The position numbers and the translations under genes were made by a program. Under the pieces are notes generated by a model. That model had not been told where the DNA came from. It saw nothing but the letters and a program-made list of their open reading frames with translations, and did no database searches. Below, piece by piece: positions 11,950 through 17,163 of a stretch of DNA of 36,774 nt. Each line of letters opens with the position of its first letter. Position 1 is the stretch's first letter. Source of the stretch: a virus (taxonomy: Duplodnaviria > Heunggongvirae > Uroviricota > Caudoviricetes); IMG/VR virus record IMGVR_UViG_2778261162_000005; one strand, 5' to 3'.

Positions 11950-12035
11950 TTTTGACCTGGACACAAAGGGCGCGTGGTTGATCTGGATGCTTTCAGAAAA
12001 CATCGCCAGTGACATAGTGGAAGTTGTTTGGTTTA

Positions 12036-12065
12036 CCGGAAAGCATTGTGCTTTCCGGTTTTGTT
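12036..12065 (+). terminator. Rho-independent terminator after the repressor gene
   Basis: CCGGAAAG-CATTGTG-CTTTCCGG followed by TTTTGTT, between convergent repressor and Dam genes. Confidence 0.55.
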
Positions 12066-12829
12066 CAGAAGTTGCAGATTACCAGTTCACGGCGTGGCGT
12101 GGGTTTCCCCGCCAGACTGTAGTTGATATTCACCGTCTGTATGTTCAGTTCAGTGAACACCCGACGCATCTGCGGAATGTCATTCACCGAGATAATCATC
12201 TTTCCTCTGATGCACCGTGCCAGTTCTGCGAGTAGTGTGTAGTTCTCTTCAGGAAAATCCACACCATAGCCTTCCGTCCCCAGATAGGGCGGATCACAGT
12301 AGAACAGCGTGTGCGGACGGTCATAACGCTTAATGCACTGGTGCCAGTCCATGTGTTCTATCACCGTTCTGGAAAGCCGCAGGTGTGCCGCTGACAGTTC
12401 TTCTTCAATCCGTAGCAGGTTGAAGCGTGGCGGGGAGGTGGTGGAGGTGCCGAAGCTGTGCTCTGCCACCTTGCCCCCAAACGCCTGCTTCTGGAGGTAG
12501 TAGAACCGTGCCGCACGCTGGATATCCGTCAGTGTTTCTTCCGGGGTGATCTGCAGCCATTTGTAGATCTGCCGGCTAACCAGCGCCCATTTGAATTGGC
12601 GGACAAATTCTTCCAGATGATGCTTTACTACCCGATACAGATTTACCAGTTCACCGTTGATATCGTTAATGACTTCGATCTTGCTGGGAGTCTTGAGAAA
12701 ATAAAGTGCTGCTGCGCCGCAGAATGGCTCCACATAGCAGGTATGGAGTGGGAACTGAGGCAGAATGTGTTTGGCCAGACGACGTTTTCCCCCAATCCAG
12801 GGGACGATGGGTAAAGATTGTTCTTTCAT
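12065..12829 (-). CDS. DNA N6-adenine methyltransferase, Dam-like (D12 class)
   Basis: Start at ATG 12829 (MKEQSLPIVPWIGGKRRL...); FCGAAAL AdoMet motif and DPPY catalytic motif. Confidence 0.8.
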   Translation of the reverse strand: MKEQSLPIVPWIGGKRRLAKHILPQFPLHTCYVEPFCGAAALYFLKTPSKIEVINDINGELVNLYRVVKHHLEEFVRQFKWALVSRQIYKWLQITPEETLTDIQRAARFYYLQKQAFGGKVAEHSFGTSTTSPPRFNLLRIEEELSAAHLRLSRTVIEHMDWHQCIKRYDRPHTLFYCDPPYLGTEGYGVDFPEENYTLLAELARCIRGKMIISVNDIPQMRRVFTELNIQTVNINYSLAGKPTPRRELVICNF

Positions 12830-12935
12830 TATCTGTAAGCCTTTTTCATTAGATGAAAATGCGATAGGCTTCCCTTGTTCTCGAGAACGGAAGAGCCTCG
12901 GTTGACTCACAGCTCATACCTGTAAGTTGATGACT
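12786..12935. repeat. Direct repeat copy 1 (Dam 5' end plus upstream region)
   Basis: Aligns by hand with 13419-13565; shared blocks CCAATCCA.GG.ACGATGGGTAA, TTTCAT.ATCTGTAA and CCTCGGT.G.CTCACAG..CAT.CCTGT. Confidence 0.6.
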
Positions 12936-12964
12936 CGCCTTGTGTTCGCTGCACAAGGTGAGTC
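12932..12964. promoter_or_regulatory. Imperfect palindrome upstream of P1 (hairpin or operator)
   Basis: GACTCGCCTTGTG-TTCGCTG-CACAAGGTGAGTC followed by GCTCTTTTC; GACTC/GAGTC motif occurs three times in 12903-12964. Confidence 0.4.
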
Positions 12965-13023
12965 GCTCTTTTCATGTTATTTGCATATTTCATGGGCGAC
13001 AATTAAAGGGAGTTACTAATACC

Positions 13024-13404
13024 ATGGCCCCAAAAAATATTGAGCGGTTTAATGAAATAGTTGGTGAGATATTTGGGAGACTCTACGAATCTTTCCCCGT
13101 CAAAATTGATATAAAGGCAGTTGATATCGTTAGACAGAATGAACTTACTTTTTTTCTTGATACCGTAGACTGGCTTAAAAACAGTGGCTATTTAATCGGG
13201 GCGCGTAGTTCTGGGGGGATCCACAACGCAGTGCTAACGGCTAAAGGTCTTGAGGTATTAAACGCTACGCCTGGAAGTCTGGAAAAACCGTTGGGGGCCA
13301 GAATATCTGACTCTATAAAAATTGAAGGGAAAGAAGCGTTGCGATCACTGGTTAGCCAGACTCTAGGAATAGGTCTGCAATATATGTCTCGTGGTCTTAT
13401 GTAA
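13024..13404 (+). CDS. Hypothetical protein P1 (126 aa), paralog of 13868-14272; unknown family
   Basis: ATG 13024 (MAPKNIERFNEIVGEIFGRL...); body visibly AT-rich; shares GxIFxRL, F(L/I)DTxxWL and VLTxKxLxxLNAxP motifs with P2. Confidence 0.6.
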   Translation: MAPKNIERFNEIVGEIFGRLYESFPVKIDIKAVDIVRQNELTFFLDTVDWLKNSGYLIGARSSGGIHNAVLTAKGLEVLNATPGSLEKPLGARISDSIKIEGKEALRSLVSQTLGIGLQYMSRGLM

Positions 13405-13464
13405 TATCGCAAGGCAGCGTTTGCCACCAATCCATGGAACGATGGGTAATGTCTGCGTTTTCAT
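13363..13464 (-). pseudogene. Truncated Dam 5' fragment (copy 2)
   Basis: Minus-strand ATG 13464: MKTQTLPIVPWIGGKR matches the Dam N-terminus, then the frame runs into the antisense of the P1 3' end and stops after 33 codons. Confidence 0.55.
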
Positions 13465-13565
13465 AATCTGTAAACATTTTACAATTATTAAAAATATGGC
13501 AGGCTAGTCTGGTCTCACGAGACTGACTGAACCTCGGTCGGCTCACAGTGCATTCCTGTGGGACG
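13419..13565. repeat. Direct repeat copy 2 (Dam 5' fragment plus upstream region)
   Basis: See copy 1; same orientation, immediately 3' of P1. Confidence 0.6.
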
Positions 13566-13609
13566 ATGGCCAGCCCGGCTTTCGGGTGCCGGGCTGGTCG
13601 TTCTTTCAT
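13562..13609 (-). pseudogene. Dam 5' fragment (copy 3) interrupted by a 28-bp palindrome
   Basis: Minus strand ATGAAAGAAC...CCATCGTCCC matches the Dam start, with CCAGCCCGG-CACCCGAAAG-CCGGGCTGG inserted between; on the plus strand the palindrome is followed by TCGTTCTTTC (terminator-like). Confidence 0.5.
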
Positions 13610-13653
13610 GATGCGGCAGGGATAGTGGGATTTCTGTTAATGCGGTTTAGGGA

Positions 13654-13869
13654 TTATCCGGGGTGATTTTCTGACCTTATCTGGTCCAGGGCGTAAGTGA
13701 GCCCTTCTGCAAAAACAGAAGTATCAAACTGCTTTTGTATTTCCTGAAAATGAACAGTGGCACGACAGATACTCAGTTCTCCGCGATGTAACCGGATAAT
13801 ATCTTCCAGAACATTGTTCACTGCTTCAGCACGGCGCTGATGTTCTGTTAACGTTAATCGGGGATTCAT
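13654..13869 (-). CDS. Hypothetical small protein (71 aa)
   Basis: ATG 13869 with AAGGAG 7 nt upstream; charged, helix-prone; its start overlaps the P2 start on the opposite strand. Confidence 0.35.
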   Translation of the reverse strand: MNPRLTLTEHQRRAEAVNNVLEDIIRLHRGELSICRATVHFQEIQKQFDTSVFAEGLTYALDQIRSENHPG

Positions 13870-14272
13870 GATGCACTCCTTAAATGATGATTTTTATGTA
13901 CTCACCGGCAAAATATTCTGCCGATTACTGAACACGCATCCGGTACCTCAGGTTTTGATTTATTCTGGTTTTTTCGATATCCCGGACCAGGTTGATCACG
14001 ACCAGAAAAAGTGCCGGTATTTTATTGATACGCTGATATGGCTTCGGGATAACAGCTATATTCGTTACTCTCAGTTGCTGGCTGTGGGAGCGGCTGATGT
14101 CGTCCTCACGGAAAAAACGCTCTGTCTGCTCAATGCCATGCCGACCTTTCTGCAGCCCCGGCCCGTGCCATTTAAAGAGTCGCTTCTGGATGCAGTAAAA
14201 ACCGGTGAAAATGCAGTCATCGCTGAATGCGTATCCCGGATTATGCGTTACGTGTTTAATGAACGTAAGTGA
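13868..14272 (+). CDS. Hypothetical protein P2 (134 aa), paralog of 13024-13404; unknown family
   Basis: N-termini of P1 and P2 align without gaps from the first Met (F9, G14, I16, F17), supporting this start. Confidence 0.55.
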   Translation: MMHSLNDDFYVLTGKIFCRLLNTHPVPQVLIYSGFFDIPDQVDHDQKKCRYFIDTLIWLRDNSYIRYSQLLAVGAADVVLTEKTLCLLNAMPTFLQPRPVPFKESLLDAVKTGENAVIAECVSRIMRYVFNERK

Positions 14273-14991: not shown

Positions 14992-15121
14992 ATCGTATTC
15001 TCCTCTGTGAATAATTCATCGTTTATCCTGCACACCCCGTATCCCCGGCTCTCTTAACGCGCTTTAAAATCCTTCGCGCCCTGTATTTGTGATGCTGTCT
15101 CCACCAGACAAGGAGACACAC

Positions 15122-16840: not shown

Positions 16841-17163
16841 CACTGCAGGTTGAATTCTGGACGGTGGTGAGTTTTTTGCTCACCTTCATGGGGTTTGTGG
16901 GAGGGCTCGCCAAATGGTTGTTCAGTAAAACAGAAGAACGCCAGGCGGCACGATTCGCCTCCCTTGAGCAGGCCCTGCAACAGTCCGCCTCCAACTGGGG
17001 CGAACTGGAAAAAGAATTTATGCGATTTAAAGCGGATTTACCGCTGAATTATGTCCGTCGCGAGGATTATATCCGTGGCCAGACAGTCATCGAGGCCAAA
17101 CTGGACGCGCTCTACAACAAACTGGAAGTGGTACAGCAGTACCGCAATACCGGAGGTCAATAA
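16837..17163 (+). CDS. Hypothetical membrane-anchored protein (108 aa)
   Basis: GGAAGG RBS, ATGA overlap with Rz stop; one N-terminal TM. Confidence 0.45.
   Translation: MTLQVEFWTVVSFLLTFMGFVGGLAKWLFSKTEERQAARFASLEQALQQSASNWGELEKEFMRFKADLPLNYVRREDYIRGQTVIEAKLDALYNKLEVVQQYRNTGGQ

Follow-up and report, generated by a model that had tools for sequence, protein, structure and literature searches.

The Dam methylases of phages shield phage DNA against restriction, and they can interfere with mismatch repair and gene regulation in the host. To our knowledge, how these enzymes are controlled is largely unknown outside the mom operon of Mu. Antisense RNAs encoded in cis are familiar from phages and plasmids, such as lambda oop, P22 sar, P1/P7 c4, CopA and FinP, and a palindromic hairpin that mediates RNA dimerisation is found in the DIS of HIV-1. 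At Pmom of Mu, in the absence of the activator C, RNA polymerase occupies a divergent, overlapping promoter, momP2, which competes with the weak mom promoter (PMC3378877, PMC4287176). Here we describe a palindrome beside a phage dam gene that is very probably an arm of a structured and conserved RNA, which is encoded on the opposite strand and points away from that gene.

The window, by which we mean the whole 36,774-nt stretch analysed, is a BcepMu-like transposable E. coli prophage related to Escherichia phage PhiKM, and it is 100% identical to E. coli M-17 over the 801 bases compared (12700-13500). Between its divergent dam and P1 genes lies a 13-nt inverted repeat, to which an earlier note had drawn attention and which proved to be just as described there: the arms GACTCGCCTTGTG (12932-12944) and CACAAGGTGAGTC (12952-12964) are spaced by 7 nt, form 12 Watson-Crick pairs and, on the + strand, one G.T pair, and are followed by GCTCTTTTC (12965-12973) as the tail of the hairpin. 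As + strand RNA the palindrome folds with -26 kcal/mol (z = -5.9, equalled by none of 200 shuffles), compared with -19.3 kcal/mol for the - strand, and this hairpin, which we term hairpin D, is more than a chance feature. The sequence of its arms recurs nowhere else in the window beyond chance expectation, even with up to three mismatches allowed.

The GACTC-containing repeats reported from the same interval fared differently. The three GACTC/GAGTC sites are present (12904-12908, 12932-12936 and 12960-12964), but they are no more than chance would give; two of them are the arms of a single hairpin and the third falls in the 5' arm of hairpin C; nor are they kept in relatives, which have GACCA, GGCCA, GGCCT or GGCTC at these positions. 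We accordingly rejected GACTC as a functional motif, given that it is unconserved among relatives and depleted in the window as a whole (37 GACTC/GAGTC sites versus 61.7 +/- 7.7 expected, with 100 of 100 shuffles having at least as many). One possible cause of this depletion is counter-selection of a type IIS restriction site.

Table 1. Coordinates of the features of the dam-P1 region in the window (positions are those of the whole stretch).
Feature	Position	Strand	Evidence or remark
Canonical intrinsic terminator	12035..12059	+	11-bp perfect stem ACCGGAAAGCA/TGCTTTCCGGT, then TTTTGTT
dam, D12-class N6-adenine DNA methyltransferase	12065..12829	-	Pfam PF02086, E = 1e-27; PGAP in E. coli M-17; divergent from copy 1
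RNA element, copy 1	12864..12974	+	Covariance model 83.3 bits, E = 1.6e-19
-10-like hexamer TAGGCT	12865..12870	+	NANNNT in 69/70 unique relatives; predicted promoter
Hairpin B, GTTCTCGAGAAC	12877..12888	+	Perfect palindrome, unique in window; predicted RNA 5' end
Helix P1, 5' strand, GGAAGAGC	12889..12896	+	Pairs with 12965-12972
Conserved junction CUYGG	12897..12901	+	C, G, G columns nearly invariant (alignments A2 and A3; covariance-model consensus)
Hairpin C	12902..12930	+	Holds first GACTC; 11 pairs, 10 with double changes, 86% paired
Hairpin D (the palindrome)	12932-12964	+	13/13 pairs compensatory; 92.6% of cells paired, 76 distinct sequences
Helix P1, 3' strand, and U-rich tail, GCUCUUUUC	12965..12973	+	Scored as terminator tail; predicted RNA 3' end
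Gene P1, cargo	13024..13404	+	phrog_2266; 50 nt after RNA
Remnant (first ~18 codons) of second PhiKM-type dam	13409..13464	-	95% identity to 5' end of PhiKM dam
RNA element, copy 2 (PhiKM type)	13499..13609	+	Covariance model 95.1 bits, E = 1.7e-22

We are highly confident that the palindrome belongs, as one of its arms, to a conserved structured RNA element of the + strand. The element was first seen as a ~110-bp block upstream of dam or of com-dam operons in IMG/VR loci, in a sample of 80 Dam-anchored loci in which Dam identity goes down to 61%. The RNA itself would be ~97 nt long (about 12877-12973) and points away from dam, and the element shows a set order of parts: the -10-like hexamer, hairpin B, the 5' strand of helix P1, the junction CUYGG, hairpin C, hairpin D and the U/C-rich tail (Table 1). 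Helix P1 closes a three-way junction that bears hairpins C and D, which makes four helices in total. The minimum free energy fold of 12877-12973 is this consensus architecture (-42.3 kcal/mol, z = -4.5), with one C.A mismatch in hairpin C of the window copy; RNAalifold recovered the long-range helix P1 unprompted, and the same architecture emerged in most of 58 sequences folded singly.

The structure is kept by covariation. In a MAFFT alignment of 32 diverse sequences (A3), 88.4% of the cells are paired versus 72.2% upon shuffling and 38-48% with the 3' partner slid, and double changes occur in 25 of the 32 pairs; not one of 500 shuffles reaches any of these measures. Aligning 76 distinct sequences to the covariance model (A4) gave 89.3% paired cells versus 70.8% shuffled and compensatory pairs at 30 of 32 positions, figures to be read in the knowledge that a model-fitted alignment leans towards the model structure and that kinship among the sequences makes shuffle statistics overstate significance. 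In helix P1, 7 of 8 pairs are compensatory, with one position showing AU 29 times, GC 33 times and UA six times. For hairpin D, the alignment with Klebsiella phage KP12, two other E. coli prophages and PhiKM again shows pairing kept by compensatory changes; its apex, GUG-loop-CAC, is retained among relatives, and the loop ranges from 4 to 8 nt.

The strand on which this selection has acted can be read from the departures from Watson-Crick pairing, which on the + strand comprise 136 G.U cells versus 20 A.C cells, and which among the internal mismatches of hairpin B comprise 15 G.T versus two A.C. Likewise, with the covariance model the window copies reach 83 and 95 bits in the forward direction but no more than 13 bits in reverse (no more than 10 bits for copy 1). 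The excess of G.U over A.C and the forward-only model scores together indicate that the selected structure is that of a + strand RNA, antisense to dam. A strand-specific structure kept via covariation, as expected of a small RNA gene, is thus what we observe.

Two copies of the element are found in the window with the covariance model, and among 86 Dam-anchored or related loci there are 75 with a single copy, placed opposite dam or the com-dam operon. Approached from the side of the RNA, a pattern search with hairpin C yielded 80 viral loci, 72 of which have a divergent Dam within 600 nt, with three of the other eight being cut by the locus edge and five being without Dam; in species-representative genomes a divergent Dam adjoins the RNA in 40 of 45 model-confirmed loci. 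These RNA-side searches put about 90% of the confirmed copies in linkage with a divergent Dam. In linked loci from phage types that are unrelated to one another, the RNA always stands opposite and adjacent to dam or com, and the short distance between them is fixed. The exceptional loci include two with a Com-family zinc-ribbon gene (PF10122) in place of Dam (L111 and L254, the latter continuing with an ATPase-GNAT fusion), one in which dam is split by an insertion sequence (L239), one with only a start-codon remnant (L132), one with the copy between two tailspike genes (L128), and another that is also away from any dam or com gene (L214). A com gene (PF10122) stands between the RNA and dam in many relatives (L049, L053, L055, L060, L065, L073, L079, L080 and others). 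The com-type loci, including L254, indicate that the RNA goes with com-led DNA-modification operons in general.

The hosts span Enterobacterales, Burkholderiales, Nitrosomonadales, Methylophaga, a Francisella MAG, and Geomonas and other Desulfuromonadales, and the carriers include both Mu-like and lambda-like phages. The copy-2 type occurs in 556 of 5426 complete E. coli genomes (about 10%), ST131 included, and the copy-1 type in six complete E. coli genomes. Copies with identical scores are found on at least seven scaffolds of Methylophaga thiooxydans DMS010 (L220, L221, L228, L247, L262, L272, L281), which suggests either a single transposable prophage present many times over or an artefact of assembly. 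In the lambda-like Burkholderia siphoviruses phiE125, phi1026b and KS9 the element lies between Rz and dam, directed against the late operon; this placement of the RNA-dam module in phiE125 and KS9 implies that it travels with dam and not with the lysis operon. Mu itself, including com-mom, has no copy of the RNA (best model score 7.5 bits), and BcepMu has no dam in the corresponding slot. Searches with Rfam 15 gave no match at the gathering threshold in the whole window, and within 12500-14000 they gave nothing of relevance up to E = 10; in 16 related loci they gave only a tRNA, with the c4 antisense RNA, riboswitches and phage motifs unmatched. The element, the copy-2 type included, is unannotated in RefSeq, and a literature search for a described RNA of this kind found nothing relevant. 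The family is, therefore, apparently uncatalogued.

The 5' flank of the element bears promoter-like signals. A NANNNT hexamer lies 2-8 nt before palindrome B in 69 of 70 unique sequences (T1 in 53, A2 in 69 and T6 in 69), and TG is present at -15/-14 in 33 of 69, against an expectation of about 6%; no -35 element was seen upstream. The hexamer and the TG fit an extended -10 promoter with a predicted transcription start at the base of hairpin B, and so, on motif evidence, the element would have what a small RNA gene should have, namely its own promoter at a fixed distance.

At the other end, hairpin D, with 13-15 pairs of which 7 are G-C, is a stable GC-rich stem-loop of the type found in intrinsic terminators, and a simple scan for terminator-like sites picked out the palindrome on the + strand, with a stem of 15 pairs and CTCTTTTCAT as the tail. 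The last 12 nt of the relatives average 5.9 T and 10 pyrimidines versus 2.5 T expected. The U tract is interrupted, reading GCUCUUUUC in the window and GCCCUGUUUC in GC-rich relatives, and a GC-rich strand of helix P1 separates it from hairpin D, features that leave the efficiency of termination uncertain. Since the partner of the U tract is the 5' strand of helix P1, which is rich in purines, the effective terminator would be the whole Y-shaped domain formed by helix P1 and hairpins C and D, with D as its main stem. Judging from these motifs, we think that the element probably does terminate transcription. A plain terminator needs neither hairpins B and C nor a conserved junction, and hence the RNA probably has a further role. 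We also considered the element as the terminator of the repressor operon and rejected this, as the canonical intrinsic terminator in Table 1 already stands there: it lies (12035-12066 with its tail) between the repressor-side operon and the stop codon of dam, abutting the end of dam, and hairpin D is thus not needed to stop transcripts of that operon.

Hairpin B is peculiar in being palindromic through its centre. Zero-loop palindromes with arms of at least 6 are present in 48 of 51 unique hairpin B variants versus 12% of shuffles, and 46 of 49 hairpins B have a self-complementary tetranucleotide as their 'loop' (CGCG, TCGA, GTAC, ACGT, CCGG, GGCC, TGCA, AGCT or GATC). A hairpin loop has no need of such symmetry, yet the mismatch bias shows selection at work on the RNA. 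Candidate explanations are homodimerisation of the RNA, a symmetric head-to-head pair of promoters, or a DNA dyad for a dimeric protein.

Gene P1, the cargo gene that follows copy 1, has neither a Pfam nor a PADLOC match and no recognisable DNA-binding domain. No promoter-like site was seen between 12974 and 13024, and accordingly P1 may depend on read-through from the RNA. Its paralog P2 (13868-14272; 28% identity, E = 4e-12) is likewise assigned to phrog_2266 and without Pfam or PADLOC match. Along with genes for proteins of 71 aa (phrog_4490) and 247 aa (phrog_3787), both occupy a hotspot for cargo genes that extends from the dam-RNA module to the holin. Among relatives the cargo differs straight after the RNA tail, with DUF2441 in KP12 and strain C31 and nothing before the holin in Ecol_542. 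The dam remnant downstream of P1 is divergent from RNA copy 2, which is complete, and many of its E. coli matches are named 'DNA adenine methylase'; gene P1 is flanked by two dam-RNA control regions, and the duplicated control region looks like a trace of recombination between two phage variants.

Further sites in the neighborhood deserve mention. The motif TTAAYGYNNTTTA occurs five times in the window versus 1.04 expected (13637-13649 and 15054-15066; at 17017 and 28354 with one mismatch): the occurrence at 13637 follows RNA copy 2 and that at 15054 stands 56 nt before the start codon of the holin. Many enteric relatives have likewise conserved the motif behind the RNA, and we regard it as a candidate for a late promoter element that depends on Mor. 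A lysis or late-operon leader on the model of lambda PR'-6S-tR' was rejected in view of the orientation in phiE125 and KS9 and the separate late-promoter-like motif. In the KP12-type clade (L003, L005, L012, L014, L019), a direct repeat of 9-12 nt, (C)GTTCTTTCATT, of which one copy is at the start codon of dam and the other at the RNA 3' end, flanks the control region of ~150 bp; it is weak in the window (12820-12829 and 12965-12975). This clade-specific repeat could be a recombination junction or could allow the RNA tail to pair with the dam start. Such pairing was rejected for the element at large, as the identity, GTTCTTTCAT(T), of 9-12 nt is confined to the KP12-type clade, the mean over all loci being 5.4 versus 5.0 shuffled. 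Two - strand candidates were also discarded: a small upstream ORF or type I toxin, because its frames are unconserved and without a ribosome-binding site, and a sigma-54 promoter, because the GG-N10-GC spacing fits only GC-rich relatives and not the enteric ones.

Taking these observations together, we consider it reasonably likely, on the strength of comparative sequence data, that the palindrome is helix D of a + strand RNA of ~97 nt with its own promoter and terminator that would hold back dam. Host sigma-70 RNA polymerase would start at the base of hairpin B, and the Y-shaped domain of helix P1 and hairpins C and D would act as an intrinsic terminator, with the transcript ending at about 12970-12973; except for read-through, this would shield what lies beyond, namely gene P1 and the lysis and late genes in the window, and in the siphoviruses the end of the late operon that converges on the element. 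The DNA-modification gene might be held back in one or both of two ways: the promoter of the RNA could compete with that of dam or com, in the manner of momP2 at Mu Pmom, and the RNA could act in cis as an antisense partner of dam leader transcripts running across the element. That the element controls dam at all is a tentative proposition, which we would put at somewhat short of an even chance. Three observations speak for such antisense pairing: some com-type loci have no more than 9-12 nt between the start codon of com and the hexamer, genes upstream of the element in the siphoviruses are read through it in the direction of dam, and a stretch of at least 5 bp complementary to the -10 region is found at the dam ribosome-binding site in 65% of 101 unique loci versus 22% of shuffles. 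The com spacing and this complementarity suggest that the dam or com leaders may overlap the RNA gene. No dam promoter was identified, so that an overlap of the dam transcript with the RNA is conjectural. AGCCT (12838-12843), AGGCT (12865-12870) and AGCCT (12893-12898) alternate over the dam ribosome-binding site, the -10 hexamer and the helix P1/junction region; in a - strand dam leader the middle AGGCT could pair with either neighbor, a possible switch for hiding or exposing the ribosome-binding site. More speculatively, and with a good deal more doubt than belief, we posit a new regulatory RNA class for phage DNA-modification modules (dam, com-dam and com-GNAT): a self-terminating antisense RNA in which the perfect palindrome at the 5' terminus would join two molecules by pairing, or would join the RNA to the same hairpin carried by a head-to-head dam leader. 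Such an RNA would be an on/off gate, with the methylase silent in lysogens and released late in infection.

Other readings of the same element were weighed. It might be a stand-alone trans-acting or protein-binding small RNA (a decoy, a scaffold or of the ProQ/Hfq type), with hairpin D as its terminator stem and the adjacency to dam as a mere consequence of cassette co-inheritance. The compact conserved fold, with a junction and an apex of D that exceed what termination needs, the rare copies without dam and the wide distribution all speak for this; but there is almost no conserved single-stranded seed beyond CUYGG, the loops vary freely among close relatives, as expected of cis-encoded RNAs, and the linkage of about 90% of the copies to a divergent dam or com at a fixed short distance, across phage types and phyla, is hard to square with a function in trans, which we therefore regard as unlikely. 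Another reading is a leader or attenuator, i.e. a regulated terminator, for the + strand genes downstream. The earlier note had raised this for gene P1, and it was right in so far as a terminator-like + strand structure does stand 50 nt before P1 with no promoter-like site between, and cargo, be it P1 or DUF2441, always comes directly after the element. The structure belongs, however, to a dam-linked module and not to P1: what lies downstream changes from phage to phage (P1, DUF2441, the holin, or a convergent Rz or tail gene with its 3' end towards the element), the late-promoter-like motif before the holin is distinct from the element, and no conserved alternative antiterminator pairing was found, all of which makes regulated attenuation distinctly improbable.

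Two readings place the function elsewhere than in a + strand RNA. If the conserved object were the 5' untranslated leader of dam on the - strand, with riboswitch-like or Com-type translational control, its position upstream of dam, the fold of that strand (-35.5 kcal/mol, z = -3.6) and the complementarity of the ribosome-binding site to the -10 region would be accounted for; but the 136 + strand G.U pairs would become A.C mismatches on the - strand, the reverse-strand model scores are near zero, and there is no conserved - strand promoter candidate upstream because the cargo differs straight after the tail, and we hold this reading to be very improbable. The same strand bias (G.T 136 versus A.C 20 among departures from symmetry) tells against a palindromic operator bound by a dimeric regulator, P1 or another, as first proposed for this site. 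A near-perfect dyad in a divergent intergenic region would suit an operator well, and the through-centre symmetry of the neighboring palindrome B is a DNA-like property; yet the half-sites of hairpin D vary with compensation while the pairing is kept, the spacer varies from 4 to 8 nt, and the window has no second copy of a half-site. As for P1 in particular, it shows no DNA-binding domain and is absent from most of the loci with the hairpin, which is kept in hundreds of prophages without gene P1. The operator, and with it the role suggested for P1, is the reading to which we attach the least credence, and we have abandoned it.

Should the self-terminating RNA that we favor be borne out, a conserved RNA beside phage dam would be a handle on methylase control, with carriers including phages of Klebsiella, Burkholderia and environmental proteobacteria, and the element would add a well-supported family to the RNA catalogues. 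It also marks the left border of an accessory-gene hotspot (P1, P2), the cargo of which may depend on read-through for expression.

In terms of known systems, the kind of molecule is familiar, namely a small, self-terminated and probably antisense regulatory RNA, whereas Rfam 15 has no counterpart of the family, of its branched terminator or of its 5' palindrome. Like intrinsic terminators, the element has a GC-rich stem followed by a U-rich tract, and its A/G-rich GGAAGAGC pairs with the U tract as in extended stems; unlike them, its stem is branched by a three-way junction bearing C and D, its U tract is interrupted, and both the junction and the apex of D are conserved. With the cis-encoded antisense RNAs of phages and plasmids it shares a length of ~100 nt, several stem-loops with freely varying loops, what would be its own promoter and terminator, and a location opposite the 5' side of a gene for which timing is important, but it differs from them in its three-way junction and the perfect palindrome at its 5' terminus, and it has no Rfam match, c4 included. 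Hairpin B resembles the HIV-1 DIS in its self-complementary loops, including those with GUGCAC-type centres, although its loops are only about 4 nt, its context is bacterial and its dimerisation is hypothetical. The closest parallel in arrangement is with momP2 of Mu: in both cases a divergent promoter, predicted at our locus, stands directly upstream of a late, potentially harmful DNA-modification operon, and in many relatives a Com zinc-ribbon gene comes first in that operon; in contrast to Mu, the divergent transcript is here predicted to be a conserved structured RNA, and its partner is usually a D12-class Dam rather than Mom.
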